This document shows positions 5,921 through 47,610 of a DNA stretch of 64,000 nt, piece by piece (positions within the stretch are counted from its first letter, which is position 1; the number at the start of each line of letters is the position of its first letter). The notes below the pieces were generated by a model. That model was not told the origin of the DNA, ran no database searches, and was given only the letters and a program-made list of their open reading frames with translations. The translations under genes and the position numbers were made by a program. Location: IMG/VR virus record IMGVR_UViG_3300014202_000529, positions 104,790 to 168,789 of that record. One strand, written 5' to 3'. Source of the DNA: a virus. Its lineage: Duplodnaviria > Caudoviricetes.

Positions 5921-6589
5921 TTAACCTTTCGTGTAAGCTGTAGTAAGTGGTGTCACAACAGGATCTTTCTGAAACCTATCCTCTGGTCCAGGACCCTTAA
6001 CTTCAATTTTCTCACCGTTACCCTTTTGATCCTTTGAAGGACTTTTCTTCTTCTTTGCTTCCTTGAACGCTTCCTGCACTACCTCTCTATTAATGCCAGT
6101 ATGCTTACGTTCCGATAGTGGGAGGTGGGGTTGTATCTCGTTCGGATGTACAACTGCAGACCCCAAACGATACTTGACTGCTGTTGTCGGTATTCCCTTT
6201 GGACGGATATTTATCTGACCGTTTCCATGTAGGTGGACAACCTCATGTGGTACGCCAACATGGGGCCCCTTATCCGGGACAACCACATCACCCACCTTGA
6301 ACCCACCATCCTCATTGAATGCCACATTAAACGCTTCTTGAATCTTCTTATTGGACGCTTTTATGAGCTGCTTTCCACCTTTCTTTCGAAACGCAATAAT
6401 GGACGCAGCATCATTGACCTGATCCGCATACTTACCTGCAGCTTTCTGGTCATGGGTACCAATAGCAGTCATCGCCTCATGAGCATCCTTTGCGATGTAA
6501 TGCAACTCCGCATCACTCTTATAGTGATAATCATGTCCCTTTAGAGGAGTGTGCAACCTAGCTTCCTTAATCTGTTTATACTTTTTCAT
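5921..6589 (-). CDS. Basic, His-rich modular hypothetical protein (probable head-internal protein)
   Basis: N-terminal MKKYKQIKE; internal IQE, LSE, VQE; KOW/SH3-like GFKVGDVV module. Confidence 0.65.
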   Translation of the reverse strand: MKKYKQIKEARLHTPLKGHDYHYKSDAELHYIAKDAHEAMTAIGTHDQKAAGKYADQVNDAASIIAFRKKGGKQLIKASNKKIQEAFNVAFNEDGGFKVGDVVVPDKGPHVGVPHEVVHLHGNGQINIRPKGIPTTAVKYRLGSAVVHPNEIQPHLPLSERKHTGINREVVQEAFKEAKKKKSPSKDQKGNGEKIEVKGPGPEDRFQKDPVVTPLTTAYTKG

Positions 6590-6598
6590 GTGGTCCCC

Positions 6599-7708
6599 TT
6601 ATGACTTCTCTTCTTTTACTCCTGCAGCATCAAAGAAACGCTTCTTATCGAAACGTGGGTTAGCTTTAGTGAAAATCTCGGAGTGATGTGATGCTAACTC
6701 ATGTCGTTTCTTTGGATCTGGGTGTGACTTAATGATATCTGCAACCTGTCTGAAATGGCGACGAGTGAATGCAGCTTCCTTAATTAGCTCTTTTACAATT
6801 GAGAGAGTTGACCCCTCTTCATTTGTTAGTTTCTTTGTTGCCATATTAACCCCCTTTGCCCTCTTTAATGACTTTTTCATTTGTGATTTTGCTAAAAGAC
6901 TTGACCCCAAACGGACACCACTATCTGACGATTTCGATGCCGTCATGGACAAATCATGTGAGGTTTTTGCATGCTTTGCTGCAGCATCCCCAGCTTTTGC
7001 CACGTATGAGCGAAGTGTGGACTTGTTCAGCTCGTCAATCTGCACACTCTCATCAACTGCAGTATGGGTGACCTGCTTTCTACCATCTGGGGTATCCTTC
7101 TCTGCTATTTTTGCATGAACCAAATGATGTTTGCTTTTTGGTGTGTTTGCCTTTTTACGAATTTGTGTGACTGCAGAATAAAGAGAATCGGCTTCAACCT
7201 CATGCCGAGTTCCCTTATGATCAAACCCAACAAAACCATGTTCATTTAAGGAGTGTTCATGATCATGTATCTGCTTTTTCGTCCACCCCATTTTTGCAAG
7301 GTGTGCTCTCGCTTCATCTTTGCTCATACCACCAGCAACCGCTGCTGCAGCATCATGCATGCGCAAAGTCTGTCTAGCAACATGAGTCTGGTGACGGTGA
7401 AACACATCACCAACCATTGGTCTACCTTCTTCTAGGGTGTCTTGTGAACTAGAGTTTTTGTTTTCTTCATGCATATTTCCACCATGAACCTTTTTTATAT
7501 GTGAATGAACGGCATCAATTTCCTGCTTAGAGAAATCTGGATTGTGTTTAGCAACATGCTCCCTAGATGTGATGGTCTCATCGCTGTGAGCCTTATGGTA
7601 GTTTGTTGCGTAGATGTCAACCTTACCATGAGGGACAACAAACGTTTTACCATTAATTTTTCCAGTATACTGGTGTGAACCTTTGAATGCATCGGTGATA
7701 TGTGACAT
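6599..7708 (-). CDS. Basic, His-rich modular hypothetical protein (probable head-internal polyprotein)
   Basis: Short modules separated by LEE, LNE, VDE/IDE, IKE; includes IDELNKSTLRSYVAKA. Confidence 0.65.
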   Translation of the reverse strand: MSHITDAFKGSHQYTGKINGKTFVVPHGKVDIYATNYHKAHSDETITSREHVAKHNPDFSKQEIDAVHSHIKKVHGGNMHEENKNSSSQDTLEEGRPMVGDVFHRHQTHVARQTLRMHDAAAAVAGGMSKDEARAHLAKMGWTKKQIHDHEHSLNEHGFVGFDHKGTRHEVEADSLYSAVTQIRKKANTPKSKHHLVHAKIAEKDTPDGRKQVTHTAVDESVQIDELNKSTLRSYVAKAGDAAAKHAKTSHDLSMTASKSSDSGVRLGSSLLAKSQMKKSLKRAKGVNMATKKLTNEEGSTLSIVKELIKEAAFTRRHFRQVADIIKSHPDPKKRHELASHHSEIFTKANPRFDKKRFFDAAGVKEEKS

Positions 7709-9819
7709 TACTTCTTCTCCGTTCGCAAATCTCTGAATGTTTTCTTGGGTCCTGTTGTTGCTTTGCCTCCACTTAAAGGAGAAATAACTTCCTTTTCGCC
7801 CTTATCCATACCAAGTATGGGTCCACCCTCACCACCCAAATCAAGAACAGGTTCACCCTCAGTAAGTAAATTAGCGAATGCATCATCAAGGGATTCTTTA
7901 ACTGGCTGCTTAGCAACTTCTTTTGGTTTCTCCATAACCTTCTTCTTCTCAACCAGCTTATCATGTAATGAGAAGTGAGTGATTCGACCACCCTTACCAT
8001 AGCGACCAAACCCATAATACTGCAGTCCCATCTGCTGTGCTTGCTTTGCTGCTTCAGATTGGTCATTTGGTGGGGTTACCGAACTTTGCTGCTTCTTATT
8101 GCCAATTGGTTTTTTAGCAAGCTTGCCCAAATTGCTCTGAATCCATTCTTGTGCTTTCGGATGTTTTGGTTCCGACTGGCTGAACTTCTTAACTGTTTTG
8201 AATAGATCTAGTAGCTCTTTACTCTTTGCCTTATGTACCTCTGGATCTAAATTAGTGCGCAAATCCTCATCATTTTTGAACTCATGATAGTGCTCAGTTC
8301 CAAAGATCTTTGAGAATTCTACGCGGGCATCCTGTGCCTCCTTCCACTTGGAGGAACGAAGCTTTTCAGGAACTAAACGTCCGCCGCGTTGTCCTCTTTC
8401 AACATTCCTCTGACGAGACACATCATCACTTGTATCAACAAACAACATCTTAGAATCGTATCCCAACTCATCAAGAACACTCTTAATCTTTCCTATTTTC
8501 TTTGCATCTGCACCTGTGGAGTTGATAATAATCCCATTGCGACCCTCAAGAGCGAAACGATGTCTGAGTTCAGTGACGGACTTAGCCTTAGCTCTTACTT
8601 CGTCTCGTCTCTTCGTCTCATGCTCTGGCATCTTCATGTCAAGCTTATGTTTGTCCATCAGATACTCAAGAGCCTTATCTGAATTAATTTCTACCAGTCC
8701 ATGCCCATCAAGTGCTTTCTTAAGAACAAAATCTTTTCCCGATCCAGGACCACCAGCTAAAAATACAGCTTTAAAAATAGATGCATCATGTACACCTTCG
8801 GATAGCAATTGTCTCTCTTCTTCTAACATACCCATCGACTTCCTAACATCGTAGAATAATTGCTCTGCGTTATCTAGTGACATGGTGCTTGGAATACCTT
8901 TCTTAAATTCCTGAAAGTTATTATTCTTTGCATGCTCTCTCATTTTACTAGAGGAAACCCCCTCAATCCCCTCTCCATCCGCATCTCTATGTCCTGCTGA
9001 ATGGACGGTGATGGATTTGAAGTGGAATCCATTGCCCGCATCATCAATATGACCATTATACTTATTTAACAAAGTATTAAACTCATCAACTCGGTCATCC
9101 CCCATGACAACATGTAAATGCTTAACCCCAGACTTATGTGCTAAAGTTGCATGGTGAAGTAACGATGGATGTTCCTTTGTTGACCCCATTATCTTGGTAC
9201 CCGGAAACATCGCACTGGTGTGCCGGATCTTAGACTCTTGATCTAAAGGATTCTTGTTTCTATCTTGGGTATGGGATAGGATAACTTTATGATCTGCATT
9301 GTGTTTATGTGCAATCTCATGAACCTTCTGAATCAATTTCTCATGACCAAGTGTTGGAGGATTCATACGACCAAACGTCATGACTAAATGTGGTTCCTGA
9401 ATATGAGAGGTAAATGATTCAACCACAGTTTTAGTGAACGACTTGGGGAATTCTTTTGCAGCGGAGAGAAGATCCAGAATTTTTGCATGGACCACAATAG
9501 CAGGAATCGTCTCTTTATTGTCAATATTGAGCAGAGCAATCCAACGATGATGCCCATCTAAGAGGTAATGATCTCCAGACATGATAATAGGTTTTTTTAA
9601 GTGCTCCCGCTTATCCTTCATCAACTGTCTGATTTTTACTTCATTAAACTCACCCTGAGAAGGATAGAGAGAAGCAACGGGGAACTCGGTATGTGTGACT
9701 TTTATATTCTTTTTGGTCTTGAGCCACTGAATGAAAGCGGACACATCTGTAGACTTGATCTGTGGAAGTTGGGAACGTTGTATATTGAGACCATGCTTAG
9801 GAATGTATAGCGGCTTCAT
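7708..9819 (-). CDS. Three-domain fusion: ParB/Srx-like + cytidylyltransferase-like (HIGH family) + Zeta-toxin-like P-loop kinase
   Basis: LLDGHHRW; TFGRMNPPTLGHEKL...SSSKMR; KAVFLAGGPGSGK...RNVERG. Confidence 0.8.
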   Translation of the reverse strand: MKPLYIPKHGLNIQRSQLPQIKSTDVSAFIQWLKTKKNIKVTHTEFPVASLYPSQGEFNEVKIRQLMKDKREHLKKPIIMSGDHYLLDGHHRWIALLNIDNKETIPAIVVHAKILDLLSAAKEFPKSFTKTVVESFTSHIQEPHLVMTFGRMNPPTLGHEKLIQKVHEIAHKHNADHKVILSHTQDRNKNPLDQESKIRHTSAMFPGTKIMGSTKEHPSLLHHATLAHKSGVKHLHVVMGDDRVDEFNTLLNKYNGHIDDAGNGFHFKSITVHSAGHRDADGEGIEGVSSSKMREHAKNNNFQEFKKGIPSTMSLDNAEQLFYDVRKSMGMLEEERQLLSEGVHDASIFKAVFLAGGPGSGKDFVLKKALDGHGLVEINSDKALEYLMDKHKLDMKMPEHETKRRDEVRAKAKSVTELRHRFALEGRNGIIINSTGADAKKIGKIKSVLDELGYDSKMLFVDTSDDVSRQRNVERGQRGGRLVPEKLRSSKWKEAQDARVEFSKIFGTEHYHEFKNDEDLRTNLDPEVHKAKSKELLDLFKTVKKFSQSEPKHPKAQEWIQSNLGKLAKKPIGNKKQQSSVTPPNDQSEAAKQAQQMGLQYYGFGRYGKGGRITHFSLHDKLVEKKKVMEKPKEVAKQPVKESLDDAFANLLTEGEPVLDLGGEGGPILGMDKGEKEVISPLSGGKATTGPKKTFRDLRTEKK

Positions 9820-9851
9820 ATCCCCTCTACAGGAATGTTATGTTATGGAAT

Positions 9852-9859
9852 TATTTATA
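9852..9859 (-). promoter_or_regulatory. T4-type late promoter
   Basis: TATAAATA 32 nt upstream of the 703-aa fusion gene; overlaps the upstream TAA stop. Confidence 0.75.
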
Positions 9860-10316
9860 AGATTAGATCGTTTACGTAGTCAGAGCATACACCAAACACA
9901 TTATGTTTTGCAAGATAATAAGAAACACCATCAGTGAATCTTTCTGGCATAACAACAATGGAGTTTTTTCTTGCTGGGGTTCGCTCCGGGTAGCACCAAA
10001 GATACCCCCTGCTCGTTAAGGTGTAGTCATCAGAATCATGGAAGAAATAATGTGCACCAGGAACAAATTCATTAAGTATGTCAATAGCTTCTACATTTTT
10101 ACAATGGCATACGAATTTATCTTGGTGTTCGATTATGTAGGGTGGGTCTATTTTATGGACCGGTTTATCATGACCTAACCACAAGGTTCCATCTTTACCC
10201 CAAAGATCGATTTCAACATGAAACCCATATCCCAGTGCAACCTGTATGTGTTTGGGGGAGTTCTCTAGTTCTATCGACGGACCTGAAATATTACCACGGT
10301 GTGCAATATATAACAT
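9855..10316 (-). CDS. GDPD/PI-PLC-like phosphodiesterase
   Basis: IAHRGN...ENSP...VEIDLW...LGHD...HCKN...GVCSDY. Confidence 0.8.
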   Translation of the reverse strand: MLYIAHRGNISGPSIELENSPKHIQVALGYGFHVEIDLWGKDGTLWLGHDKPVHKIDPPYIIEHQDKFVCHCKNVEAIDILNEFVPGAHYFFHDSDDYTLTSRGYLWCYPERTPARKNSIVVMPERFTDGVSYYLAKHNVFGVCSDYVNDLIL

Positions 10317-10412: not shown

Positions 10413-11099
10413 CTATTCTGTGGGTTTCTGTACTCGAACCCAAATCCATTGGGGATGAACGTCATGACAGGGTTCCGTCAAAACATAATCAAACCCCACA
10501 AACCCCTGATCTTCAAGATCTTTCTTAAGAACTTCCACATCCTCAACCCTCGTATCCCTATGGGATGTATCGGTTTCATCATAATTGTGAAAGTAATCAA
10601 CCGATATGGGGTGTCCAGGACCAAACCCCATCTGAAAACAGAAATAACCACCAGGCACCAAAACTCTATGGATCTCTCGATAGAGTTCCAATCTCCAATC
10701 CCTGCAACCAATATGTTGCATACAAATGATGGAGAAGACCACATTGTAGATTGAAGAATTAATCATACTCAGAGAATGACCATTCGTATGATAAAGATTG
10801 GGCACTTGAACCTGTGATTCTGCTAGATTCGCTGGAAGTTTAGCAAGAATTTCGCTTGAAATATCTACACCATCAATGCGACCAAACCAATCTTTAAACT
10901 TGATGATGTTTCTACCTGGACCGCACCCATATTCCAAAGCATGAGACCCAATGTGAGTTTGAACCCCTCGGAACAAAAGCTTCCCCTCTTTCTCATCAGC
11001 CATATGTTCATTGTACCATCCAACTAATGGATTTTTATTTTGCAATGACCAACGAGAAGCTTCTTCACCCCAAAACTGACGCAACATTTCATCTGCCAT
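10413..11099 (-). CDS. Class I SAM-dependent methyltransferase (paralog A)
   Basis: LEYGCGPGRN, GVDIS, RVLVPGG. Confidence 0.9.
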   Translation of the reverse strand: MADEMLRQFWGEEASRWSLQNKNPLVGWYNEHMADEKEGKLLFRGVQTHIGSHALEYGCGPGRNIIKFKDWFGRIDGVDISSEILAKLPANLAESQVQVPNLYHTNGHSLSMINSSIYNVVFSIICMQHIGCRDWRLELYREIHRVLVPGGYFCFQMGFGPGHPISVDYFHNYDETDTSHRDTRVEDVEVLKKDLEDQGFVGFDYVLTEPCHDVHPQWIWVRVQKPTE

Positions 11100-11130
11100 G
11101 ATATTCTCTTTCTAATTTAAAATTATGATA

Positions 11131-11868
11131 TTATGGTTTACGACACTGGACCCAAATCCACAATGGATGCTCGTCTTTGCAGGTACGAGTAAGTTTGTGA
11201 CCCACCCACTCAAACCCCACATCAACAAGATCCTTGCGAAGATGCTCAACATCTTCAACCCGAACGTCCTTGTCCACAAATTCTGATTCGGTGTTAAAGG
11301 AATCTGTAAAATAGTCCACCGAACGGGGATGCCCAGGACCAAACCCAGTTTGGAAACAGAGATATCCACCAGGCTTCAACACGCGCAAAAACTCACTATA
11401 CAAATTCAACCTGACTGAACGAGAAGTGATATGTTGGTGACTGATAACCATGAACACCAAATCGTAACCGGGGAACTGGCTAGAATCATATGGATTGGTA
11501 CCCGCTGAAGGAATCATATCCAACGACCGACCATCATTAACCCATAGATTAGGCTCAGGTAGTCTCTCTGCTGCAAGATGCAACTTCGCTTTTTCAATAC
11601 ACTCAGGAGCAATATCAACACCATCAATGCGTTGAAATTTCTTATGCCACTTGATAATGTTTCTTGCAGGTCCGCAACCATATTCCAAGACAACTTCATT
11701 ACCCGTCAATGGAAGATCTCGGAACAATACACTATCATACTCCGGGAATGCCATGTGCTCATGATACCAACCGACAATAGGATTCTTGTTTTGTAGACTC
11801 CATGTCTTCGCAATGTCATTCCAGAAATTGGATTGTCTCTTTAAAAAATCATTATCACTTACACTCAT
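11131..11868 (-). CDS. Class I SAM-dependent methyltransferase (paralog B)
   Basis: LEYGCGPARN, GVDIA, RVLKPGG; collinear with paralog A. Confidence 0.9.
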   Translation of the reverse strand: MSVSDNDFLKRQSNFWNDIAKTWSLQNKNPIVGWYHEHMAFPEYDSVLFRDLPLTGNEVVLEYGCGPARNIIKWHKKFQRIDGVDIAPECIEKAKLHLAAERLPEPNLWVNDGRSLDMIPSAGTNPYDSSQFPGYDLVFMVISHQHITSRSVRLNLYSEFLRVLKPGGYLCFQTGFGPGHPRSVDYFTDSFNTESEFVDKDVRVEDVEHLRKDLVDVGFEWVGHKLTRTCKDEHPLWIWVQCRKP

Positions 11869-12019
11869 GATTATCCTCCGGTAAATCGATTAGATGAACA
11901 GTTAGGTCTTCTTTCCCTTGCCGCATTGCCCGCTGTCTCCATAGAGATTCATGAATGACCTGCTGAATGATGGACGCATCAACTTCATTCTTCACATCAA
12001 CATAAATCCTATGTGGCAT
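11855..12019 (-). CDS. Small hypothetical protein (54 aa)
   Basis: MPHRIYVDVK...; SD-like AAGGGG upstream; fills the operon gap. Confidence 0.5.
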   Translation of the reverse strand: MPHRIYVDVKNEVDASIIQQVIHESLWRQRAMRQGKEDLTVHLIDLPEDNHECK

Positions 12020-12021
12020 GA

Positions 12022-12816
12022 CTACACCCCTTTTAAATATTTCTTTGTGAACCAAGGATACCAATCTATTTCAGTTATCATAGATCCAAATGCAAGATCA
12101 ACCCTAGAAATGGGACCGCTGCCATTTAACATATGACCCCATTTTGCACAGTAGTGGGCTTGCGAGTGCTCAAGTATGCTATTTCTCCCACCCATCTTCG
12201 CAACAATTTCCTCATGCTGATTTATATAGGTCTTATCGCAAGCCTTCGATTGAATATGTGTTGGTATGTATCGTTCCACCCCAATTGAATTATGACGAAA
12301 TCCCCAGTCATGACTTTCTGAGATAGACAACCGGTTCGCATCCCACTGTTGCCAAATCCTCTTCAACCAATCAGCATCCCCACAGTAACAACCAAGATAC
12401 CTCTCATCGAAATATCCCACTTGAGCAAGAAGTCTCTTCTTCACATAAAAGAATTGATCTCCTGCAGGACCCCATATCAAATCATATCGGTCTTTGTTCG
12501 CAAGAATTAAATTTTGGAATCCAACCGGATCGATAATGTGTGTATCATCCTGTACACAAATAATCTCTTCTTCTGTCTTGAATGCCTTTATAAAAATGCT
12601 ATTCCAACTGCGAGCACACCAAGAATTTGATTCATTATCGGACAGGGTATTGTTCATAATTTTAATCTTCTGTTCGCCTGCCAACTTATAGTTCTCTTCA
12701 GATAACCCAACTTCAGAATGGTTGGTAAAAACATGAACATCAGTCCATGATTTAAATGTATCAATTTGTCTATTCAGTGCTGTGGGTCTGTTGAATGTCA
12801 AAATCCATGTCTGCAT
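12022..12816 (-). CDS. GT-A fold glycosyltransferase (GT2-like)
   Basis: ILTFNRP, VQDD, VGYFDERY...GDADW. Confidence 0.8.
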   Translation of the reverse strand: MQTWILTFNRPTALNRQIDTFKSWTDVHVFTNHSEVGLSEENYKLAGEQKIKIMNNTLSDNESNSWCARSWNSIFIKAFKTEEEIICVQDDTHIIDPVGFQNLILANKDRYDLIWGPAGDQFFYVKKRLLAQVGYFDERYLGCYCGDADWLKRIWQQWDANRLSISESHDWGFRHNSIGVERYIPTHIQSKACDKTYINQHEEIVAKMGGRNSILEHSQAHYCAKWGHMLNGSGPISRVDLAFGSMITEIDWYPWFTKKYLKGV

Positions 12817-12819
12817 AAT

Positions 12820-13350
12820 CTACCTCCGAAAAGTAATATCAACCACACCGACACCAACATAAATGATGTCTGTGTGAAAGGTGAAGTCATGATCAATTAA
12901 CCACTGCAATACATCTTGAGAATGCTTGTCATACACCCTAACCCTACCCTCTTTTACTATTCTATAATGATCCCCCAAACTATCGAGACAAGCTTCCTCT
13001 GAAAATGGAGCATCAATCCTCAAATAGTCTATACTGGATATGCCATACATTTCAATAAACGTATCCAATCGCATAGTCCAAGACATGGTGAACTGTTTGC
13101 CGAATGTTCCTCCAGAGGGGTTAAGAGAATCCTGTGCATCGTTCTCATCATGGAATAACGGTTCCTGATTGTCCCCCCAGTTAATAGCGAATGGAAGGGG
13201 ATATAGACGAGGATTTTCCTGGGATAACTTGAATAGGTCCTTAAATCTGCGGATATTCGGTTCGAACGCATACACCTTTACATCTGGACTTGCCAAAAAG
13301 TGTTTAGTTTCTACACCAGCATGCGCACCAATTTCAATGATGGTTCTCAT
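12820..13350 (-). CDS. FkbM-family methyltransferase
   Basis: IEIGAHAG, YAFEPN, RLDTF...IDYLRID. Confidence 0.8.
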   Translation of the reverse strand: MRTIIEIGAHAGVETKHFLASPDVKVYAFEPNIRRFKDLFKLSQENPRLYPLPFAINWGDNQEPLFHDENDAQDSLNPSGGTFGKQFTMSWTMRLDTFIEMYGISSIDYLRIDAPFSEEACLDSLGDHYRIVKEGRVRVYDKHSQDVLQWLIDHDFTFHTDIIYVGVGVVDITFRR

Positions 13351-14720
13351 TGCTTATGAGACTCCAAAAAGGTTTTTAAATCTTCTGGTGTACCAATCCC
13401 CCACATCTTCTGAATGTCCTTGACACGAACCACTTTACCATCCCCGATTGCTTCATTGAACACTGGGCAGACATAAAATTCATTATTCGTCCTAATATTC
13501 TTCTCGATCATCTGCTTTGCGTACTTGACATAATCGGAGCCCTTCTTCCAATAGTAAATACCCACTGTAGCATGGTCTGAAATCGGTTTCTTTTCTGCTA
13601 CCTCTTCAACAAACCCCCTCTCATTAATCTTCGCATAGGACCATTTGGGATGAAGGGAGTGAAATGTCAAAATGCCCGCATCAATACCATCTGCAGTAAA
13701 TGCGTACAAGCATTCATTCGAATCCCATTCTACATACTGGTCAGAATTCGCAATCAACAGCGGATCATCATTGTTGATAAATTTTTCTGCAAGGAGAGTT
13801 GTGCAGGCAGCCCCTTCAGTAACACCATCAACTTGAACGATGTCGCATCCAGGAGCAATCATATTCAACATATATTTTAGCTGATACTTCTCATAGTGTT
13901 CCCTTTGTACCAAGAAAACATAGTGAGCTTCAATATTCAGGTTCTCTACCACTACCTGAATCATAGGTTTACCGTTCACTTCGATGAGAGGCTTGGGGAA
14001 TGAATATCCCGCTTGTGCGAACCTCGAACCATGCCCAGCCATAGGAATAACCACATTCATCTTATTGTTCCTCCAAGGTACGGTAACCAACTTCCCACCA
14101 TCCAAATAATGTATGGCATTATCAATAACAGCTTCCGTCAAATCTTCGGGTCCACCTATGGGGAGAAGGTGTGCTTTGGACGCAAGAGCTGCTTGTCTTC
14201 CAATATGTGAATCCTCTATGATAACGGTTTTCTCTGGAATGGAATTGAGGGCAGTCATAACCTTCCAATACATATCAGGAAAGGGTTTAGCTCTTTTCAC
14301 ATCTTCATTTGAAACCATATAGTCAACATATTCCATAATTCCCTTTCTTAAAAGGGCAATCTTCATAGTAGCACGTATGCTATTTGAGGCAACCGCAATC
14401 TTAATTGCATTCATTCTGAGTTTTTCACACAAATATTGTGTGCTCTCATCTACATCGATATTACCATACAACTCAACGGTATAGTCTTGTTTTCTTCTCC
14501 AAATGGAATCATACAGACCGGTAGGTAATCCTTTTTCCTTGGTAAGCATCTGTAACTTCTTGGTGGTGGGTAGTCCATCATACTTTGAAAGGTGTTCATC
14601 CCAGGAAATCACAAACTTTGGGTTACAGTCTAATAGGGCGCGATTCAATGCCTCAAAATGGATCTTCCGAGAATCAACTAACACCCCATCAAGATCAAAA
14701 ATTACTAGACGATTAATCAT
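13347..14720 (-). CDS. HAD phosphatase / sugar-phosphate nucleotidyltransferase fusion
   Basis: FDLDGVL...KPFPD...EDSHIG, then IPMAGHGSRF...PKPLI...NEFYVCP...GIGTPEDL. Confidence 0.9.
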   Translation of the reverse strand: MINRLVIFDLDGVLVDSRKIHFEALNRALLDCNPKFVISWDEHLSKYDGLPTTKKLQMLTKEKGLPTGLYDSIWRRKQDYTVELYGNIDVDESTQYLCEKLRMNAIKIAVASNSIRATMKIALLRKGIMEYVDYMVSNEDVKRAKPFPDMYWKVMTALNSIPEKTVIIEDSHIGRQAALASKAHLLPIGGPEDLTEAVIDNAIHYLDGGKLVTVPWRNNKMNVVIPMAGHGSRFAQAGYSFPKPLIEVNGKPMIQVVVENLNIEAHYVFLVQREHYEKYQLKYMLNMIAPGCDIVQVDGVTEGAACTTLLAEKFINNDDPLLIANSDQYVEWDSNECLYAFTADGIDAGILTFHSLHPKWSYAKINERGFVEEVAEKKPISDHATVGIYYWKKGSDYVKYAKQMIEKNIRTNNEFYVCPVFNEAIGDGKVVRVKDIQKMWGIGTPEDLKTFLESHKQ

Positions 14721-15390
14721 AATTCAACATCCTCTTATACCAGTCAATATGAAAATGGGTTGTTTGTTGAAATGGAAACCCAACTCTACCCATGTCTCTG
14801 TGCTGTTTATTATGTATGACAAGTGCCGCGGGGTTGCATGCAATCATTGCCTTATCGCGTATTCGCAAGGACCATTCCACATCTTCTGTAGAACCAACTG
14901 GCAATTCTTCGTTCAGGGGATTATCAAGAAGAAACTGCTTCTTGACCAAGAAAAACCCACCACTAATATATTGTTTTTTGGTGTAACTCCAATTGGTGTA
15001 CTCTATGGAAGTATATTGAACGGGTGGCTTTTCATTGTACCACATGACCCAATCTGTGAAATGTCGGTTCCCATCCATAAGGAACTGAGGGTTTGAACAC
15101 ACATCCCACTTATCACCAAATTCTTTGTAAGCTTGATACCATCGCTTATCAAAGGTAAAATAATCATGCAGGAGAACAATGACATCATGGGAAGCTTGCC
15201 TTGCGATGGCATTTTTCTTGTCTGTGAGCCACACACCACTCGAACAGTCTGCAGTAAGAATTTCAACATCAGGGATGTTAAGACTCTTTATACTCTCAAT
15301 AGTAGTATAGTAACTACTTAGATCATTGTGTGGTGGGCGAGACTTATGCCTCACATTGCCACTGGTACATATTCCAAACGTCATCTTCAT
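14713..15390 (-). CDS. GT-A fold glycosyltransferase-like protein
   Basis: TFGICT, KKNAIA, LLHDY, YISGGFFLVKK, EDVEWS. Confidence 0.7.
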   Translation of the reverse strand: MKMTFGICTSGNVRHKSRPPHNDLSSYYTTIESIKSLNIPDVEILTADCSSGVWLTDKKNAIARQASHDVIVLLHDYFTFDKRWYQAYKEFGDKWDVCSNPQFLMDGNRHFTDWVMWYNEKPPVQYTSIEYTNWSYTKKQYISGGFFLVKKQFLLDNPLNEELPVGSTEDVEWSLRIRDKAMIACNPAALVIHNKQHRDMGRVGFPFQQTTHFHIDWYKRMLNYD

Positions 15391-16415
15391 TACTGAATAA
15401 TCCTCAAGATGTCGGCAACTGTGTGTGATATCTGATGTGAAGAAATAATATAATTCTGTGCTGTCACTAGATCTTCATGGGGAACGCCAATGAACCCCGT
15501 CATGTATTTTACCAACTCTTCTTGGGTTGTATAGGTGACCCCATATTCACGTAGCGTTTCAGCTCCAGCAATGTTTCTTGCGACCCAGGGAGTGCCATTC
15601 AACATCGCCTCTAACAACACCAACCCAAACCCCTCAGACGTTGAATTCAATACATACAAATCAGCTTCTCGCAATGCGGAGAGCATCATAGATCTGGTGT
15701 GGAGCAAGAGACTCTTCACCCTTTTTGTGGTCTGAGGCATGATGTTATTTCGGTTGTCATACCCTGTCAATACAAGGGTTACATCATCTCGATCAATAGA
15801 GTTAAATGTTTCGACCAACTCATCAAACCCCTTGTTTGGCCAAAACCCACCAGAAGAGAGGAACATATACTTGGTGGTAATGCCATATTTTTCTCTAAAA
15901 CCAAGAGGACCTATGGACTGATTACAATTGATTCCATGACGAACGCGAACTGCCTTATGTTGGACATTATACCCCTTAACATGACGATAATCCGCTAAGG
16001 TGGAGCACCCCAGGTAGGAAGCTTTATACAATGCAGAAATGCAAGTGGGGGAATTTGATGGAAGAATAAGAAGATAAAGAACAGGACCCCCAAACTTATC
16101 CGCATTAGACAACACATAATTTTGCATAGACACATCACCACCATGAACAACGATTAAATCCCAACTGTTCATGAGGATGGAAGTATCAGAGGTAACAGGA
16201 ACACCATTATGATTTCCCTTGTGCTCACCCGCAAGCACTACAACATCATGACCCCTGAAATATGCCGTTTCTGCCATATCTTTCACGTAATTTTCCGACC
16301 CACCTGGAAATGGAGCATACCTATGAACGACAAACAACAACTTACGCTTAACAAACTTCACCGGAACACCTGCTTGTGTTGGTTGTGCTGGTTTAGTGGG
16401 TTCTTCAAAAGCCAT
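15390..16415 (-). CDS. GT-B fold glycosyltransferase (GT4-like)
   Basis: YAPFPGGSE, NKGFDEL, STSEGFGLVLLEAM. Confidence 0.88.
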   Translation of the reverse strand: MAFEEPTKPAQPTQAGVPVKFVKRKLLFVVHRYAPFPGGSENYVKDMAETAYFRGHDVVVLAGEHKGNHNGVPVTSDTSILMNSWDLIVVHGGDVSMQNYVLSNADKFGGPVLYLLILPSNSPTCISALYKASYLGCSTLADYRHVKGYNVQHKAVRVRHGINCNQSIGPLGFREKYGITTKYMFLSSGGFWPNKGFDELVETFNSIDRDDVTLVLTGYDNRNNIMPQTTKRVKSLLLHTRSMMLSALREADLYVLNSTSEGFGLVLLEAMLNGTPWVARNIAGAETLREYGVTYTTQEELVKYMTGFIGVPHEDLVTAQNYIISSHQISHTVADILRIIQ

Positions 16416-17308
16416 TATACATATCTCCTCTCAACAAATTTACGAACTTCAGGAACTCGGTCCCATTGATGAACGATAGCATACGGTTCACCAACTGGTG
16501 TAACAACAAGACCCTTATCAGTGTCTAGACATGGACCAGTGGTTTTTAAAAAGCTACGATACTTATTAATTTTAGAAGGGTCTGCAGTGGTGCCCAATTG
16601 AGCCGCCCAAGCAGTGTCATGATCTGTATGTAGCGTTATGTTTTTGTATGCAGCGGTATCGAGTAATAGATTATAGGCTGCTTGATCTGGACCACCGCCA
16701 CCAGGAACAAATTGGGGGGCACCTGCAGAAGTGAGGTAAATTGTTTTGCACAAACCAAGAAACGTATGGAACTTACCGGCAATCACTCCAGCATTGTATA
16801 TTGTATTTGTTTTGTGTCGTTCATAGAAAATTGTTCCATACGACTCAATCATATTATTCTTACCCCAATCTTCATGTTGGTATTCCAACTCTTCAGAAGA
16901 CGCAATGATGGAGCAAGCTTTCTCAGACCCCAACAAATCACATGAATCAAAAAAGAGACTTGGATTCTTTTGGAATATTACATCCTTCACATCAGTGGAA
17001 AGGATGTATCTTATATTGTAGCGATTTTCTTTGCTATAGAGAAAGAGGTAATAATGAAGGAAACGCTCAACGACGATGGAGAATTTTGGTTTGGGGTAAT
17101 GGAGTGAATTTGTTACAGAGTCCTTCTCAAATCCAAGAATGATGTACCCGCGATCTGAAAGTTCTTTGACCCCCTCAGCATCCATATTGTATACCACAAG
17201 AGCTTTCATTCCCTTGAACCCGGATGCATCGAGCGAGTTGACCCAAGGAGAGATTTGTTCAAATTTATATCCAGTGACAGACCCAATCACCAAATCCCGT
17301 TGTTCCAT
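16415..17308 (-). CDS. Glycosyltransferase-like protein (GT-A)
   Basis: TDVKDVIFQKNP, YNAGVIAG, DQAAYN, IVHQWDR. Confidence 0.7.
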   Translation of the reverse strand: MEQRDLVIGSVTGYKFEQISPWVNSLDASGFKGMKALVVYNMDAEGVKELSDRGYIILGFEKDSVTNSLHYPKPKFSIVVERFLHYYLFLYSKENRYNIRYILSTDVKDVIFQKNPSLFFDSCDLLGSEKACSIIASSEELEYQHEDWGKNNMIESYGTIFYERHKTNTIYNAGVIAGKFHTFLGLCKTIYLTSAGAPQFVPGGGGPDQAAYNLLLDTAAYKNITLHTDHDTAWAAQLGTTADPSKINKYRSFLKTTGPCLDTDKGLVVTPVGEPYAIVHQWDRVPEVRKFVERRYV

Positions 17309-17324
17309 TATATCTCCAGTTCAA

Positions 17325-18557
17325 TTATTTTTTCCAACTCCTGGACACTTTAAAGTTCTCATGACTGAACTCAAGACGATCAACAAGCTTTACCGCATTG
17401 CCAAGGATATCCACTGCAACAAATCCTTCGGGTCTTGTCACTTTGTACCCAGACTCCACCCGTATAAAACTCTTCGTACTCTCCGCTTTTGATAATTTAT
17501 CCAGGATCAATAGTTTAGCAGAAACAATAGCATTTTGCAAGTCAAAAAGAATCCTAATATCATTGCTATGAACTTGAAAGAAACCAAGTATGTTCGACTT
17601 TTCTTTGAACCGCTTCGTTTGTGTCTCCACCTTCTTAGCTTCAAGGACCTTTGCCGACAATCTCTTGTCTATCCAACGGATCAGACCATTAGTATGGACG
17701 ATGGTATCTTTTATCGACTGACCCTCTCGTATAACAGAATTGTTGTACATCTTAACAAGATCTCGATACACAGTGTTCATGGAAATCTGTTGTAAGACCC
17801 TAGTGTTAATGCTTTTAAATTTACGGTTGACTTCTACCAACTTGGCATCCATCAAGTCAGTCTCAACCTCCGTGAATGTTGCTGTGCCAGACTCGTCAAT
17901 AAAACTAGCATCCCTGAACCACACATCCTTTGTGTTATGAAGATAACCAAGATCAACGTTAAATGAGGTTTTTAATGACTCCATTGTCTTTCCGCTGTAC
18001 TCGGTATGAAAAACAATACCAAGCTTTGCTTTACCAATTCTATCCGCTAATTTTGTAAGAACTGGAATAGCATAGGTGATGGTATTGGGGGTAAAAGTTA
18101 TATAATCGGTACCAGAAATTTCCTGTACCGTTGGCTCATCCTCGGTAAACAAAATATCACCCTGCAAAATACCTTTGATGCCAAGCTTAGGAAGATAGCG
18201 TAAACAGATTTTTAATTTATCTTGGAGTTCTGGGGATTCATGGTTGGTGATGATATCCTGCTCAGTGTAATTAATTTTTGGGTTCTTGGAAAAGACGCTC
18301 TTGGTACCAACAAAAAACTTACCATTGTCTGGGTTAATCCCAGCAACCACAGAAGGTGCACCATCCCATTTGGTGGTGACATTCATCTTACTGAACCTTG
18401 AATGACCAGAAAGCATATCACGAAGCGATGTGAGGAAGTTTAAAGCACCTACAACACCATCAATCCCATCATTGAACATCAGATCTTCAATATGTTCAAG
18501 ATGTATGTTTTTCGGCTCATTGTCTTCTGTTAGATATGTCTTAAAATCTGTTACCAC
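17325..18557 (-). CDS. Conserved T4-like protein (DUF6267-like)
   Basis: NIHLEHIED, TTKWDGAP, FTPNTITY, PEGFVAVD...KLVDRLEFS; N-terminal FKTYLTE. Confidence 0.75.
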   Translation of the reverse strand: MVTDFKTYLTEDNEPKNIHLEHIEDLMFNDGIDGVVGALNFLTSLRDMLSGHSRFSKMNVTTKWDGAPSVVAGINPDNGKFFVGTKSVFSKNPKINYTEQDIITNHESPELQDKLKICLRYLPKLGIKGILQGDILFTEDEPTVQEISGTDYITFTPNTITYAIPVLTKLADRIGKAKLGIVFHTEYSGKTMESLKTSFNVDLGYLHNTKDVWFRDASFIDESGTATFTEVETDLMDAKLVEVNRKFKSINTRVLQQISMNTVYRDLVKMYNNSVIREGQSIKDTIVHTNGLIRWIDKRLSAKVLEAKKVETQTKRFKEKSNILGFFQVHSNDIRILFDLQNAIVSAKLLILDKLSKAESTKSFIRVESGYKVTRPEGFVAVDILGNAVKLVDRLEFSHENFKVSRSWKK

Positions 18558-42996: not shown

Positions 42997-44069
42997 TGTG
43001 CAGACATCTCCGTTAGTGCTTCATTGTAAAGTTCCTGCAGCATCGCTTTGAGCTTATCAACCTCAACCCCATCAGGTACCTTCATCGCGTCAATACAGTT
43101 TCTTATGATGGTGATGGTGTCTTCTGCTTGATCGACTGTGTTAGTTGATTCTAGCTTATTCTCAGTGTAATCCTCAACGATTGTCACATCAATTGGTGCT
43201 GCTTTATAAAGAGCATCCATGACTGTATCAAATAGATAGGGATTTTGTTTTTTCACCACTACAACTTTTACATATGAGTTAGCAAATTTAGAAAGGTCTT
43301 GTGCCTTCCAGTAGTCATAGTTTTGATTCCCATCATCATAGATCAACCGGAAGAATAGACGATAGGGGTTCTGAATGAATGTTAACTCTCTCGTATCGGT
43401 GTCAAATATATGAAACCCTCTGGTGTCGTTGTAGTCTGCCCAGGTGATTTCATATTGGTTACCAAGATAGTAGATGGTCCCGTCGCTTGATTTGTGGTGA
43501 AAGTGTCCACTGATAACCATATCATATTTGTCAAAGAGTTCTTTTGGGTGTCCCTCAAGACAAACATTCCCTCGGTCCATTTCGAATCCAGCAATCTCAA
43601 GGTGTCCAAAAATGATAGGAGCATCGCAGTCAGTGAGAAATTTAAACGCAGCTTCTTTGTTTCCGCTATTGATCCAGGGGACAAGCGCAACAGGAAGACC
43701 GTCATATTCTACTTTACATGGTTCCTGGTAGATCTTAATGTTTGGGTATCTCCCAAGCAATTCACTAAGAGCATTGACCCTGTTGGTGTTTCTGTAGTAA
43801 ACGTCATGGTTACCACAGAGCATATCAATGGGTAAGTTGAACTCTGATTCGATTCTATCAAAGAATTCAGTTTGCCACTTGTGCCATATAGAGAAGTTGA
43901 TAAACTTTCTTCGGTCCACCACATCACCCAAATGAACAATACGATCAATCTTGTGCGTTTTGAGTGCGGGAAAGAACACATTATTCCAGAACCGAAAGAA
44001 GTAATCGTTAATGTGGGGGTTATCACCGCGAGCGCCGGCGTGAGTGTCGTTGATCAAAGCTATTTTCAT
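42993..44069 (-). CDS. gp47: Recombination nuclease subunit (Mre11/SbcD-like)
   Basis: DTHAG, LGDVVD, GNHD, GHLE, SGHFH. Confidence 0.96.
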   Translation of the reverse strand: MKIALINDTHAGARGDNPHINDYFFRFWNNVFFPALKTHKIDRIVHLGDVVDRRKFINFSIWHKWQTEFFDRIESEFNLPIDMLCGNHDVYYRNTNRVNALSELLGRYPNIKIYQEPCKVEYDGLPVALVPWINSGNKEAAFKFLTDCDAPIIFGHLEIAGFEMDRGNVCLEGHPKELFDKYDMVISGHFHHKSSDGTIYYLGNQYEITWADYNDTRGFHIFDTDTRELTFIQNPYRLFFRLIYDDGNQNYDYWKAQDLSKFANSYVKVVVVKKQNPYLFDTVMDALYKAAPIDVTIVEDYTENKLESTNTVDQAEDTITIIRNCIDAMKVPDGVEVDKLKAMLQELYNEALTEMSAQ

Positions 44070-44626
44070 TATCTATCACCCATGAAACGAAGGATTCCGA
44101 TTGACATGGTTTTTGTTGGTTTTTTGATTTTTCTCATCTTTTGTTTCTTGCTCTTCTCGAATGCAATAATGAAGTCATTGATATTTTCATACACTTTGAA
44201 GTTATGATCCTCTTGACCTATCTCTGTGGTATCCCCCTGTTTCACATCCTGCAGGAGACCAAGTTGCTCGGTTGCTTTATATCTAGTGTAGAGCTGCTTC
44301 TTTTCACTACCAATCTTTCTAAGAAAAGCGAAGTAGATGATCTGTGTGAAATATGCAAATGGGTTCTTAGATTTCAGTGGGTTGAAGTTGTCAACAGAGC
44401 GGAGACAATTTTCAACAGCATCAGATATCATATCCTCTCTGAATGTGTAGCTGGCAAAATTTGGTTTCCTGGACAGATTCTCAGCGATCTTGAGGAAGCA
44501 TTGTCCGATATATTCATCAAGTTGAGGAAGAGGTTTCTTTTTCTTCCTCGATTCGGCAACCTGTTTCCTATACTGGATGAGGGCAGCTAGGAAGTTTTTA
44601 TTGTTGATATAGTGATCTTGTGCCAT
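44069..44626 (-). CDS. gp55: Late transcription sigma factor
   Basis: HYINNKNF, YTFREDMISD, NPFAYFTQI. Confidence 0.95.
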   Translation of the reverse strand: MAQDHYINNKNFLAALIQYRKQVAESRKKKKPLPQLDEYIGQCFLKIAENLSRKPNFASYTFREDMISDAVENCLRSVDNFNPLKSKNPFAYFTQIIYFAFLRKIGSEKKQLYTRYKATEQLGLLQDVKQGDTTEIGQEDHNFKVYENINDFIIAFEKSKKQKMRKIKKPTKTMSIGILRFMGDR

Positions 44627-44637
44627 AATTAATCCTT

Positions 44638-45132
44638 TCAATGGGTGACGGTTGAGTCACCCCATGCACTATCTTCTTCGAAGAGCTGTATGAGAGCGTC
44701 GGATAATTCTGTGTCAATTGGTGATTGTGTTTTTCTTTGTTGATCCTTACTTATCTTACTTCGCTTTGCGTAGTTCTCGCCCATTTTGTCTATTTGACTG
44801 TCAAAGAGCCTTTTGAACTCAGTCAACTTATCATTCTCCTCCGCTGCCCAGTGCTTGTAAAATTTACAGAGAGATTTGGAAGGTACCACTTCCCCTACTA
44901 TGAATGACTGCGGGATGATGATGTCAACACTATCTAGTAGCTCATTGGGGAGCCAGGGGTAAAGCATAAATCCCAGTGGTCCGCTCGAACTTCTTTTTGT
45001 GACAACCTCTGCTGGGCTGTTAATATGCACAGAGCTTTCTTTTCCTAGTATTTGGAGTTTACCTATCACAATCACCCCAGACACCAACATAAACATGCGA
45101 ATTTGAGAAGACGTATCTTCCGTTACATCCAT
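44638..45132 (-). CDS. Hypothetical protein between uvsW and gp55
   Basis: Syntenic ORF with a PW motif. Confidence 0.7.
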   Translation of the reverse strand: MDVTEDTSSQIRMFMLVSGVIVIGKLQILGKESSVHINSPAEVVTKRSSSGPLGFMLYPWLPNELLDSVDIIIPQSFIVGEVVPSKSLCKFYKHWAAEENDKLTEFKRLFDSQIDKMGENYAKRSKISKDQQRKTQSPIDTELSDALIQLFEEDSAWGDSTVTH

Positions 45133-46592: not shown

Positions 46593-46595
46593 GTA

Positions 46596-47057: not shown

Positions 47058-47074
47058 ATCACTCCATAGTATAG

Positions 47075-47608: not shown

Positions 47609-47610
47609 TA

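Follow-up and report, generated by a model that had tools for sequence, protein, structure and literature searches.

The window analysed here is a 64,000-nucleotide stretch of viral DNA (positions 104,790 to 168,789 of IMG/VR record IMGVR_UViG_3300014202_000529) and belongs to a phage genome that is complete (168,789 bp) and has terminal repeats. Among its genes are those for a gp55-type late sigma factor, a gp21-type prohead protease, a gp22 scaffold, gp23, the portal, the terminase, gp43 and other core proteins. These T4-like core genes lie nearly all on the minus strand, and, judged from them, the source phage is T4-like. The subject of this work is an open reading frame (ORF) of 703 amino acids, which the initial annotation had described as three nucleotide-handling domains, namely ParB/Srx, nucleotidyltransferase (NTase) and kinase, in a single protein. 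Pfam, PHROG and fold searches bore this out. The features of the fusion gene are listed below; here and throughout, a slash marks the bond behind the Glu of a possible cut.

7708-9819, minus strand: ORF of 703 aa with an ATG start; ParB/Srx domain, NTase, kinase, small beta module and tail
9852-9859, minus strand: TATAAATA, a T4-type late-promoter-like motif, 32 nt upstream of the fusion ATG
9822-9827, minus strand: GAGGGG, a Shine-Dalgarno-like site, read directly from the sequence
9421-9819, minus strand: ParB/Srx-fold domain, residues 1-133
9544-9558, minus strand: D88-G-H-H-R92 motif
9391-9420, minus strand: junction 1, residues 134-143 (ESFTSHIQEP)
8830-9390, minus strand: HIGH-motif NTase, residues 144-330
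9343-9354, minus strand: T156-L-G-H159, (H/T)xGH motif of the NTase
8938-8955, minus strand: S289-S-S-K-M-R294, second NTase motif
8794-8805, minus strand: junction 2, L339-S-E341/G342, candidate prohead-protease site in a disordered linker
8080-8787, minus strand: P-loop kinase (Zeta_toxin/AAA_33 class), residues 345-580
8731-8754, minus strand: Walker A motif, G356-G-P-G-S-G-K-D363
7933-8055, minus strand: small beta module, residues 589-629 (GLQYYGFGRYGK..TH)
7711-7932, minus strand: disordered C-terminal tail, residues 630-703
7855-7866, minus strand: junction 3, L652-T-E654/G655
7723-7752, minus strand: basic C-terminal motif, G690-PKKTFRDLR699

A longer N-terminus of the protein was ruled out by an in-frame stop upstream of the ATG. 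The AlphaFold model, built on 87 relatives (mean predicted local distance difference test score, pLDDT, of 76), consists of four folded units at residues 1-133, 144-330, 345-580 and 589-629. Low-confidence linkers (pLDDT <50) lie at 134-139 and 333-343, and residues 630-703 form a disordered tail, also with pLDDT <50. The N-terminal unit gave only a weak match to Pfam ParBc_2 (E 0.23, 12 bits against a gathering cut-off of 23.6), and a ParB match at E <= 0.01 was obtained for 3 of 43 relatives. The unit was also modelled separately (pLDDT 88.8) and compared with VIA-align. The eight best structures all belonged to the ParB/Srx superfamily (Z 7.3-5.7; the next had Z 3.2), led by 6ky4 (Z 7.3, root-mean-square deviation (rmsd) 3.5, 82 residues aligned), and the top list contained sulfiredoxin, pNOB8 ParB-N, PadC, KorB, SerK, Atu1540 and SbnI. 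Foldseek against the PDB returned ParB-CTPase, Noc and sulfiredoxin (best E 2.4e-3), and the BFVD matches were 'ParB/Sulfiredoxin domain' proteins (TMt 0.86, E 3e-12). In 43 sequences, D88, G89 and H91 are invariant and H90 and R92 are conserved at 90% or more; we take the position of this DGHHR motif to be that of the nucleoside triphosphate (NTP)-binding loop (GxxR-type) of ParB/Srx proteins, with the function predicted. Judged from the modelled fold and the conserved loop, the domain belongs to the ParB/Srx fold, with a Pfam score below the gathering cut-off. It stops at residue 133 with the NTase directly after it, and the central helix-turn-helix (HTH) and C-terminal dimerisation domain of partition ParB proteins are missing. 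The closest relatives of this domain are standalone phage proteins of ~150 aa from Ackermannviridae and Aeromonas T4-like phages. Such standalone homologues, annotated as hypothetical, are common in Ackermannviridae and in T4-like phages of Aeromonas and Vibrio; they include gp064 of Salmonella phage pertopsoe (L002:3956-4405) and occur in about 490 other phage records.

The second unit was identified as an NTase by PHROG ('cytidyltransferase', 3.7e-64). Its Pfam CTP_transf_like score of 16.3 bits is under the gathering cut-off of 21, and the same family matched 34 of 43 relatives at E <= 0.01. Across 87 sequences G158 and H159 of the first motif are invariant and T156 is conserved at 90% or more; in the second motif, which we presume to be of the ISxTxxR type, S289 and R294 are invariant and S291, K292 and M293 reach at least 90%. 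By these motifs and its Rossmann-like fold, the domain is a HIGH-motif NTase, although the Pfam gathering score was not reached. The best fold match of residues 142-333 in VIA-align was the phosphopantetheine adenylyltransferase (PPAT) 3otw (Z 13.9, rmsd 2.9, 148 of 157 residues aligned). PPATs scored Z 13.9-12.4, NadM-type nicotinamide mononucleotide adenylyltransferases (NMNATs) 13.2-12.4 and NadD 12.8-12.5. Since these Z values differ by less than 1, the modelled fold gives a tie between PPAT, NMNAT and NadD, which are to be read as substrate candidates only.

The kinase was recognised by Pfam above the cut-offs (Zeta_toxin, 45.3 bits against 22.3; AAA_33, 42.6 against 27, 1e-10), as it was in 41-42 of 43 relatives. 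VIA-align placed the putative kinase 2rhm closest (Z 12.3), and Foldseek gave adenylate and UMP/CMP kinases and the Pnkp kinase domain. In the Walker A motif G356 and G359-D363 are invariant, D381 after strand 2 is conserved, and the block R471/R475/G476 is invariant. D381 and the R block presumably fit hydroxyl-kinases (Pnk, dephospho-CoA kinase, Zeta, chloramphenicol phosphotransferase) better than nucleoside monophosphate kinases. The beta module, with four short strands in the model, has invariant G603, G605 and G608, and Y607, K609 and H615 at 90% or more. The tail varies from 55 to 436 aa across the family; ParB-bearing members finish with GPKKTF[RK]DL[RK] (GPKKT[FL][KR] being conserved in that clade), and ParB-less forms with ...KKGISLTTFKKRNY. 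Sequence searches against the PDB gave only weak adenylate and UMP/CMP kinase matches for the whole protein (E of at least 0.013), nothing significant for the family profile (PPAT at E 0.5) and spurious antibody matches for the NTase alone. NCBIfam yielded sub-threshold matches only (cyt_tran_rel 5e-4, SerK 0.004).

A full-length search found 2221 matches among 8000 scored candidates, many of which align over 93-100% of the query with 50-80% identity, the contigs reaching 178 kb. When IMG/VR was scanned with the single protein, two loci only were obtained; the scan was rerun with an alignment and located relatives on 473 of 500 candidate stretches. From the best 80 IMG/VR loci, 71 fusion ORFs were taken, and all 71-locus counts refer to this set. 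A survey of their domain architecture showed that seven carry ParB (L005, L008-L012 and L067) and 64 begin at the NTase. Because 64 of the 71 fusions lack ParB, NTase and kinase are regarded as the core and ParB as an accessory of the subclade of the source ORF. Local hidden Markov model searches of the flanks examined in ParB-less loci found no separate ParB-like gene. The ESM Atlas matches fell solely into the viral families of the 703-aa protein itself, the kinase family being 99-100% viral among the matches listed, and the NTase-kinase core thus appears to be a large virus-only family. Among isolate phages, none of 1026 matching records covers at least 80% of the query, and megablast of the region against them gave no match; the fused form is seldom seen in isolates. 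Pelagiphage HTVC008M has kinase and NTase as separate neighbouring genes, in the opposite order. Stenotrophomonas phage DLP6 has a single 722-aa protein in which the NTase is N-terminal and a ParB-like segment C-terminal. Its order (N-terminal tag, described below, then NTase, then ParB-like segment) means that the link between ParB and NTase recurs in another domain arrangement.

The initial annotation had placed the ORF behind a late promoter, and TATAAATA is indeed found upstream of it. The window contains five copies against 2.55 expected; since 17 of 100 shuffles also reach five, this count alone is not significant. The placement of the motif tells more than the count: every one of the five copies is on the coding strand, and four of them sit 28-62 nt 5' of start codons, namely those of the sheath, the scaffold, a post-portal gene and the 703-aa ORF. 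Within 80 nt upstream of the start, TATAAATA occurs in 25 of 71 fusion loci (35%) and in 30 of 1438 other genes (2%), and ATAAATA in 38 of 71 and 91 of 1438, respectively. The spacing between motif and fusion start is 29-43 nt across loci. By these counts the upstream late-promoter motif is a conserved family trait, and the 703-aa ORF appears to be a real late gene of a T4-like phage. The sigma factor presumed to serve such promoters is encoded in the same window.

44069-44626: gp55-type late sigma factor (gene match)

The 64 ParB-less fusions share a conserved N-terminal peptide, MKFxDFLxE, which in 35 distinct sequences lies 19-20 aa ahead of a GRxNPPT motif. In T4 (NC_000866), IPII and IPIII start with MKTYQEFIAE/A and IPI with MKTFKEF...ITE/A, and the family peptide resembles this T4 capsid-targeting sequence (CTS), MKTYQEFIAE. 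A regular expression for the family peptide matched 111 of 1622 true ORF N-termini in the fetched loci and 2 of 10092 internal Met positions. The positive proteins comprised 52 fusions, 39 DUF6267 proteins and 20 other neighbours (e.g., MKTYKDFILE); the 39 DUF6267 homologues start with MKFxE[YF]LTE, for example MKFTEYLTE. The best 120 short kinase homologues included 88 standalone kinases, 82 of which have [LIVMFT]xE[GAS] directly before G(V/I)(H/Y/N)D. The lengths of their N-terminal peptides peak at 10 and 12 residues (e.g., MITYEQFIKE/G). Since the tag is found at the N-termini of standalone kinases, the NTase-kinase linker of the fusion would be the former N-terminal peptide of the kinase. 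In DLP6, the DUF6267 protein starts with MMKFTQFLAE/S and the NTase-ParB protein with MKNIKDILE/A. The cytidyltransferase ORF of phage S-T4, read from its first ATG, starts with MKNFLAFITE/A. The annotated start of this ORF (NC_048049, L092:4755-5867; locus position 4815) is probably 20 codons too short, and the protein has, after its N-terminal tag, a copy of a small G..YY..G...T module that resembles the beta module of the 703-aa protein. The literature searched contained no prior description of a shared tag outside T-even phages, of an NTase-kinase polyprotein or of the addition of ParB.

Two ORFs of the window have CTS-like starts of their own.

17325-18557, minus strand: DUF6267 gene (Pfam DUF6267, 1.7e-102) with a probable GTG start, giving MVTDFKTYLTE/D
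52603-53391, minus strand: head-module ORF starting MKNFKDFRE, between the portal and protease genes

The GTG start of the former, at 18557, is 26 codons upstream of the first ATG. The start of the latter is the clearest CTS-like one in the source genome. A relaxed CTS scan of this genome matched 14 of 222 ORFs where about 9 were expected, no clear enrichment.

The initial annotation had quoted several peptides at the domain junctions and the C-terminus, and all of them are present in the protein: IQE at 140-142, LLSE at 338-341, LLTE at 651-654 and KKTFRDLR at 692-699. Junction 1 (F137...I140-Q-E142/P) aligns column by column with the N-terminal peptide of ParB-less forms (MKFxDFLxE or MLSFQEISE/AA). 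Most ParB-bearing relatives retain SF..[IL]TE/AA-EKH here, and E142 is present in 76 of 87 sequences. From this alignment, junction 1 appears to be an eroded relic of the CTS-like N-terminal peptide of the family. Junction 2 is the invariant one, with E341 in 87, L339 in 77 and G342 in 70 of 87 sequences, and its position corresponds to the end of the N-terminal peptide in the 82 standalone kinases. At junction 3, E654 is found in 42 and G655 in 69 of 87 sequences, so that it is half conserved. The counts of [LI]xE were calibrated on the presumed processing enzyme and on the scaffold.

51149-51802, minus strand: prohead protease, gp21 homologue (phrog_207, 1.7e-68), presumed processing enzyme
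49999-51084, minus strand: scaffold, gp22 homologue (phrog_237), with its own TATAAATA

The scaffold has 12 [LI]xE against 6.2 expected (z 2.6) and the protease 8 against 3.6, both within the top 4 of 71 window proteins for this excess. We infer that the source phage encodes a gp21-type protease and a scaffold with [LI]xE specificity. In the 703-aa protein the motif is not enriched, and its count alone is therefore no evidence; the meaning of the sites comes only from the relatives. On this comparison of sequences, the interpretation of the initial annotation is partly supported and becomes more precise: its 'protease-type sites' would either still be peptides for T4-type targeting and cleavage or descend from them.

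Homologues of the NTase have been detected in virions. In the passages concerned with virion proteins, mass spectrometry of cyanophage S-CREM2 is reported to have detected the cytidylyltransferase ORF154 together with the nearby ORFs 155, 156 and 160, and its authors describe kinases and cytidyltransferases as frequent in cyanophage virion proteomes (PMC10665884). In S-SZBM1 virions the product of gene 140, 'one enzyme (cytidylyltransferase)', was accompanied by that of the hypothetical gene 139 next to it, according to the corresponding passages (PMC9146016). In our tblastn searches, S-CREM2 ORF154 and S-SZBM1_140 were homologous to the NTase (E 7.7e-28 and 3.6e-28). They start with MKNFSSFLTE/A and MRFRQFIIE/A, respectively; TATAAATA precedes S-CREM2 gp154, and the product of S-SZBM1_141 belongs to DUF6267. 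As described in sections of two papers on T4, the internal proteins of T-even phages are diverse and have the capsid-targeting sequence alone in common; all T4 internal head proteins dock onto the core via the CTS, and gp21 cleaves after Glu (PMC3012670, PMC5694885). The injected T4 enzyme Alt is reported there to be trimmed at ITE-6 and LTE-619 (PMC5694885).

The best overall explanation, in our view, is that the 703-aa protein belongs to a family of late, CTS-tagged, cleavable NTase-kinase enzymes carried as capsid cargo, to which ParB has been added in the source variant. We assign it a probability of roughly 0.5. Family members would be transcribed from a gp55-type late promoter, and their capsid-targeting peptide (M-K-x-aromatic-x-acidic-F-[IL]-x-E) would dock them onto the scaffolding core. 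The prohead protease would then cut the cargo after Glu, and the cargo would enter the host with the DNA. A cut at the linker LxE/G would part the NTase from the kinase inside the head. In the source variant, the ParB/Srx NTP-binding domain would have been added in front, making the first tag an internal, partly eroded linker, and the tail would retain the LTE/G site and the conserved basic C-terminal peptide. The initial annotation had likewise proposed an enzyme set loaded into the head, cut apart and injected. At the level of the family this is supported, mostly by evidence beyond the letters that it had read: the conserved promoter motif, the CTS-like peptides, the virion homologues and the parallel with the trimming of T4 Alt. 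Packaging of family members in the capsid is somewhat more likely than not. As the relatives carry a T4-type head-loading tag, the enzymes are probably injected with the DNA. The same proposal fares less well for the 703-aa variant, in which the ParB domain takes the first place and leaves no N-terminal targeting peptide. With ParB in place of the tag, junction 1 a relic and junction 3 half conserved, we infer its packaging from the family, and judged from its sequence, packaging and cleavage of this variant fall somewhat short of even odds. The roles that the initial annotation named, such as rebuilding NAD or degrading immune signals, stand as candidates only, given the tie of the NTase fold between PPAT and NMNAT and the presence of NAMPT in two of five complete fusion-bearing genomes.

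Several observations weigh against this explanation. The 703-aa protein starts with MKPLYIPKHG, which is not CTS-like, and the strict CTS expression matches no ORF in the source genome. This expression was written after the family had been inspected, a bias that the internal-Met control mitigates and does not remove. The protein contains 7 [LI]xE against 7.3-7.4 expected from shuffles. Junction 1 is degenerate, also in the closest relatives (P0001-P0006), and Pro comes after its IQE; the conservation of E341 might reflect the structure of the kinase instead of cleavage. PDB searches gave no sequence-level match of the fusion to any solved enzyme. In the passages on virion proteins, the S-CREM2 authors caution that abundant late proteins may co-purify (PMC10665884), and the detections are there based on few peptides, two in the case of S-SZBM1_140 (PMC9146016).

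The fusion lies within a conserved gene order, which bears on the alternatives. Its neighbours are the following.

10413-17308, minus strand: island upstream of the fusion, conserved in many related phages
9855-10316, minus strand: 153-aa gene just upstream of the fusion, with the pattern IAHRGN...EIDLW...LGHD
5921-7708, minus strand: two K/H/E-rich proteins of no recognised family, downstream of the fusion

The island contains genes for sugar-nucleotide, glycosyltransferase and methyltransferase functions in conserved synteny. Among the seven ORFs upstream of the fusion, 45 of 71 loci have a HAD and sugar-1-phosphate nucleotidyltransferase gene and 12 have GT4. In the source phage the island comprises two S-adenosylmethionine methyltransferases, an FkbM methyltransferase, a GT4 glycosyltransferase and several unassigned genes; its HAD is beta-phosphoglucomutase-like and is fused to the sugar-1-phosphate nucleotidyltransferase. 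The 153-aa gene adjoins the fusion in 19 of 71 loci; it had no Pfam or NCBIfam match, and its pattern presumably recalls glycerophosphodiester phosphodiesterases (GDPD). Downstream of the fusion there are variable low-complexity proteins, followed by a 189-aa N/G-rich protein (42 of 71 loci) and DUF7207 (34 of 71). Homologues of the K/H/E-rich pair range from about 180 to 1431 aa. One of the two starts with MKKYKQIKE/A and the other has 5 [LI]xE against 2.0 expected, and by these sequence features they may be further capsid cargo. DUF6267, a functionally linked family, shares phrog_455 with the NTase and adjoins it in HTVC008M, DLP6 and S-SZBM1. K-W-D-G is invariant in DUF6267 proteins and an E-G-F-V...K pair lies C-terminally; we take these to resemble ligase motifs I, IV and V. 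Searches of the PDB with the DUF6267 protein and with its profile found nothing and no ligase, and the ligase idea is therefore a motif-level lead only.

Elsewhere in the genome, outside the window, a NAMPT-like gene (504 aa; NAPRTase 1.6e-43 and NAMPT_N) adjoins a phosphoribosyl pyrophosphate (PRPP)-synthetase-like gene (275 aa) at genome positions 67525-69863 (L089:13525-15863). Next to the pair come genes for an RNA ligase, an RF-1-domain protein and a further phosphoribosyltransferase. The NAMPT-like/Prs-like pair could serve in salvage or reconstitution of NAD+. An RNA/DNA repair cluster at genome positions 43431-47752 (L088:7431-11752) encodes RtcB (1.4e-125), an ATP-dependent DNA ligase and an RlaP-family nucleotidyltransferase. 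At 83765-87100 (L090:11765-15100) there are a cellulose-synthase-like GT2 with PilZ (650 aa) and an autoinducer-synthase-like GNAT (215 aa), which are unusual auxiliary genes for a T4-like phage. The PADLOC scan gave no defence-system matches.

The location of the enzymes could be read differently. They may be late cytoplasmic enzymes that are not packaged and that supply, for example, a cofactor or activated precursor for the adjacent island. The N-terminal peptide would then be a folding helix, a partner-docking element or an expression signal, and the virion detections would be carry-over, as the co-purification caution of the S-CREM2 authors would allow (PMC10665884, in its passages on virion proteins). 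The frequency of the HAD and sugar-1-phosphate nucleotidyltransferase gene, the GDPD-like gene and GT4 near the fusion agrees with this, as do the untagged N-terminus of the 703-aa variant and its chance-level [LI]xE count. Such a location is nevertheless rather unlikely: the same peptide stands on unrelated proteins, is found 300 times as often at N-termini as at internal Met and matches the CTS read from T4 itself, and metabolic enzymes seldom have a late promoter. A homologue is moreover listed in two independent virion proteomes, according to their passages on virion proteins (PMC10665884, PMC9146016).

As to chemistry, NadR, CoA synthase and ATP sulfurylase-APS kinase are likewise laid out as a HIGH NTase followed by a hydroxyl-kinase-like P-loop kinase, and the two-domain Foldseek matches were NadR and ATP sulfurylase with an APS (adenosine 5'-phosphosulfate)-kinase-like domain, all with high rmsd. 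The probable task of the family is two successive steps in a synthesis of the nucleotide-cofactor type; its members would phosphorylate and then adenylylate or cytidylylate, or act in the reverse order. If the steps were those of NadR, in either location, the kinase would phosphorylate nicotinamide riboside and the NTase would adenylylate nicotinamide mononucleotide, and together with the phage NAMPT-like and PRPP-synthetase-like genes NAD+ would be sustained against NAD-depleting defences. The two-domain NadR structures 1lw7 and 6gyf (E 3e-6 to 6e-6), the Z values of NadM-type NMNATs and the adjacent NAMPT-like and Prs-like genes in the genome speak for this, and passages of the S-CREM2 paper term the cyanophage protein an NMNAT homologue (PMC10665884). 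Still, we consider it unlikely. PPAT scored equally or higher, Pfam, NCBIfam and the PDB gave no sequence match to NMNAT, NadR or RNK, and the fusion has TxGH, whereas NMNATs are generally described as using HxGH. NAMPT was found in two of five complete fusion-bearing genomes (the source phage and G001) and in DLP6, and not in G002-G004, HTVC008M or S-T4; being absent from three of the five, it is not an obligate partner. An adjacent NAMPT-like/Prs-like pair is also said, by Osterman et al. in 2024, to be able to make NAD+ without any NMNAT. A CoA-synthase-like pair would instead combine a PPAT with a dephospho-CoA kinase in the order of the bifunctional coenzyme A (CoA) synthase, or else be an 'adenylylate, then 3'-phosphorylate' pair of the ATP-sulfurylase/APS-kinase type. 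PPATs top the VIA-align list with 145-157 residues aligned, nearly whole chains, and the top two-domain Foldseek matches are ATP sulfurylases with an APS-kinase-like domain (1i2d, E 1.6e-7, and 2gks). The T-x-G-H and S-S-S-x-x-R variants, presumably those of PPAT, are invariant or nearly so, and several relatives are labelled PPAT or dephospho-CoA kinase, by automatic names only. With the Z gap to NMNAT below 1, PPAT at only E 0.5 in the profile search, two-domain matches at an rmsd above 18 Å and no established biological rationale for an injected CoA synthase, we hold this to be slightly less likely again. A cargo for nucleic-acid end processing would join a T4 Pnk/Pnkp-type polynucleotide 5'-kinase, a DNA-binding ParB/Srx domain and a ligase-like DUF6267, and DNA or RNA ends would be healed or modified right after injection. 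Pnkp kinase domains appear in Foldseek (4jt2 and 4gp7, E 7e-5 to 1e-4, TMt 0.61-0.64), phrog_505 'polynucleotide kinase' matched at 7.3e-6, the genes are located between the replication genes gp41 and gp61, and the DUF6267 motifs, its shared phrog_455 and its position beside the NTase in three phages fit the idea. It is nonetheless improbable, as the DUF6267 profile matches no ligase in the PDB, a HIGH-type NTase has no clear part in end healing, adenylate and UMP/CMP kinases match the kinase equally well, and RtcB, DNA ligase, RlaP and RNA ligase are already in the genome.

If the family is capsid cargo, as we prefer, T4-like phages of aquatic and soil bacteria might carry an injected enzyme kit of tagged NTase, kinase (often fused and cleavable), ligase-like DUF6267, ParB/Srx NTPase domains and variable neighbours. 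The kit would enter with the DNA and act before any phage gene expression, and it might serve as a counter-defence packed in advance, by restoring a nucleotide cofactor such as NAD+ or CoA or by healing or modifying the ends of nucleic acids. In this full form the idea is speculative and on balance unlikely. Injected proteins are prime candidates for first-strike counter-defence because they are active before any phage gene is read, and T4 IPI* and Alt are examples of injected proteins in such a context. If the tag truly is capsid-targeting, injected cargo could be listed by a simple rule of sequence across thousands of T4-like phages that have not been cultured, cyanophages and pelagiphages of global ecological weight among them. 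It would also mean that whole metabolic enzymes, and not small inhibitors alone, are delivered by injection, some of them as cleavable fusions.

Compared with known systems, the fusion shares with CoA synthase (PPAT and dephospho-CoA kinase) and with ATP sulfurylase-APS kinase an NTase followed by a P-loop kinase for consecutive steps. The likeness to these enzymes is at the fold level only, with PPAT as the best single-domain match yet tied with NMNAT, and the fusion family differs in being virus-only and in having targeting peptides and long disordered tails. NadR has a similar three-part layout of a nucleic-acid-type N-domain, a HIGH NTase and a P-loop kinase; its N-domain is an HTH instead of ParB/Srx, the fusion has the TxGH motif, and the two have no sequence-level relationship. 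NadR is, in addition, cytoplasmic and regulatory. With Zeta toxin and AAA_33 kinases the kinase domain shares the Pfam match above the cut-off and the Walker A motif. The fusion has no epsilon-type antitoxin context, general family scans of the window proteins found no antitoxin family among the neighbouring genes, the family is virus-only and nothing indicates toxin activity. The N-domain has the fold of the ParB/Srx superfamily (ParB-CTPase N-domain, sulfiredoxin, the serine kinases SerK and SbnI, KorB), with its DGHHR loop at the position of the NTP-binding motif. It lacks the Cys of sulfiredoxin, and the 703-aa protein lacks the HTH and dimerisation domains of partition ParB.

The T4 CTS-cargo system and virion-associated cytidylyltransferases are already known. 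The cyanophage 'cytitidyltransferase' or cytidylyltransferase is homologous to the NTase (34-42% identity), has a CTS-like N-terminus and is located between gp41 and gp61 or beside gp55; unlike the 703-aa fusion, it has neither the kinase nor the ParB domain. T4 cargo consists of small basic proteins or an ADP-ribosyltransferase, whereas the fusion is a multi-domain nucleotide-handling enzyme with, unlike T4 cargo, possible internal cleavage sites between the enzymes in a polyprotein-like manner. The N-terminal tag of T4 cargo is replaced by the ParB/Srx domain in the 703-aa variant. For the fusion family, the experimental support is virion mass spectrometry of two homologues. Both systems have a late promoter, and in both, proteins that are not related to one another carry a short N-terminal peptide of one pattern; they also share Glu at P1 followed by a small residue, and neighbouring variable genes with the same tag. 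The trimming of Alt at ITE-6 and LTE-619, as reported in passages on T4 head proteins (PMC5694885), parallels IQE142 and LTE654 of the 703-aa protein, and homologues of T4 gp21, gp22 and gp55 are all encoded by the source phage.

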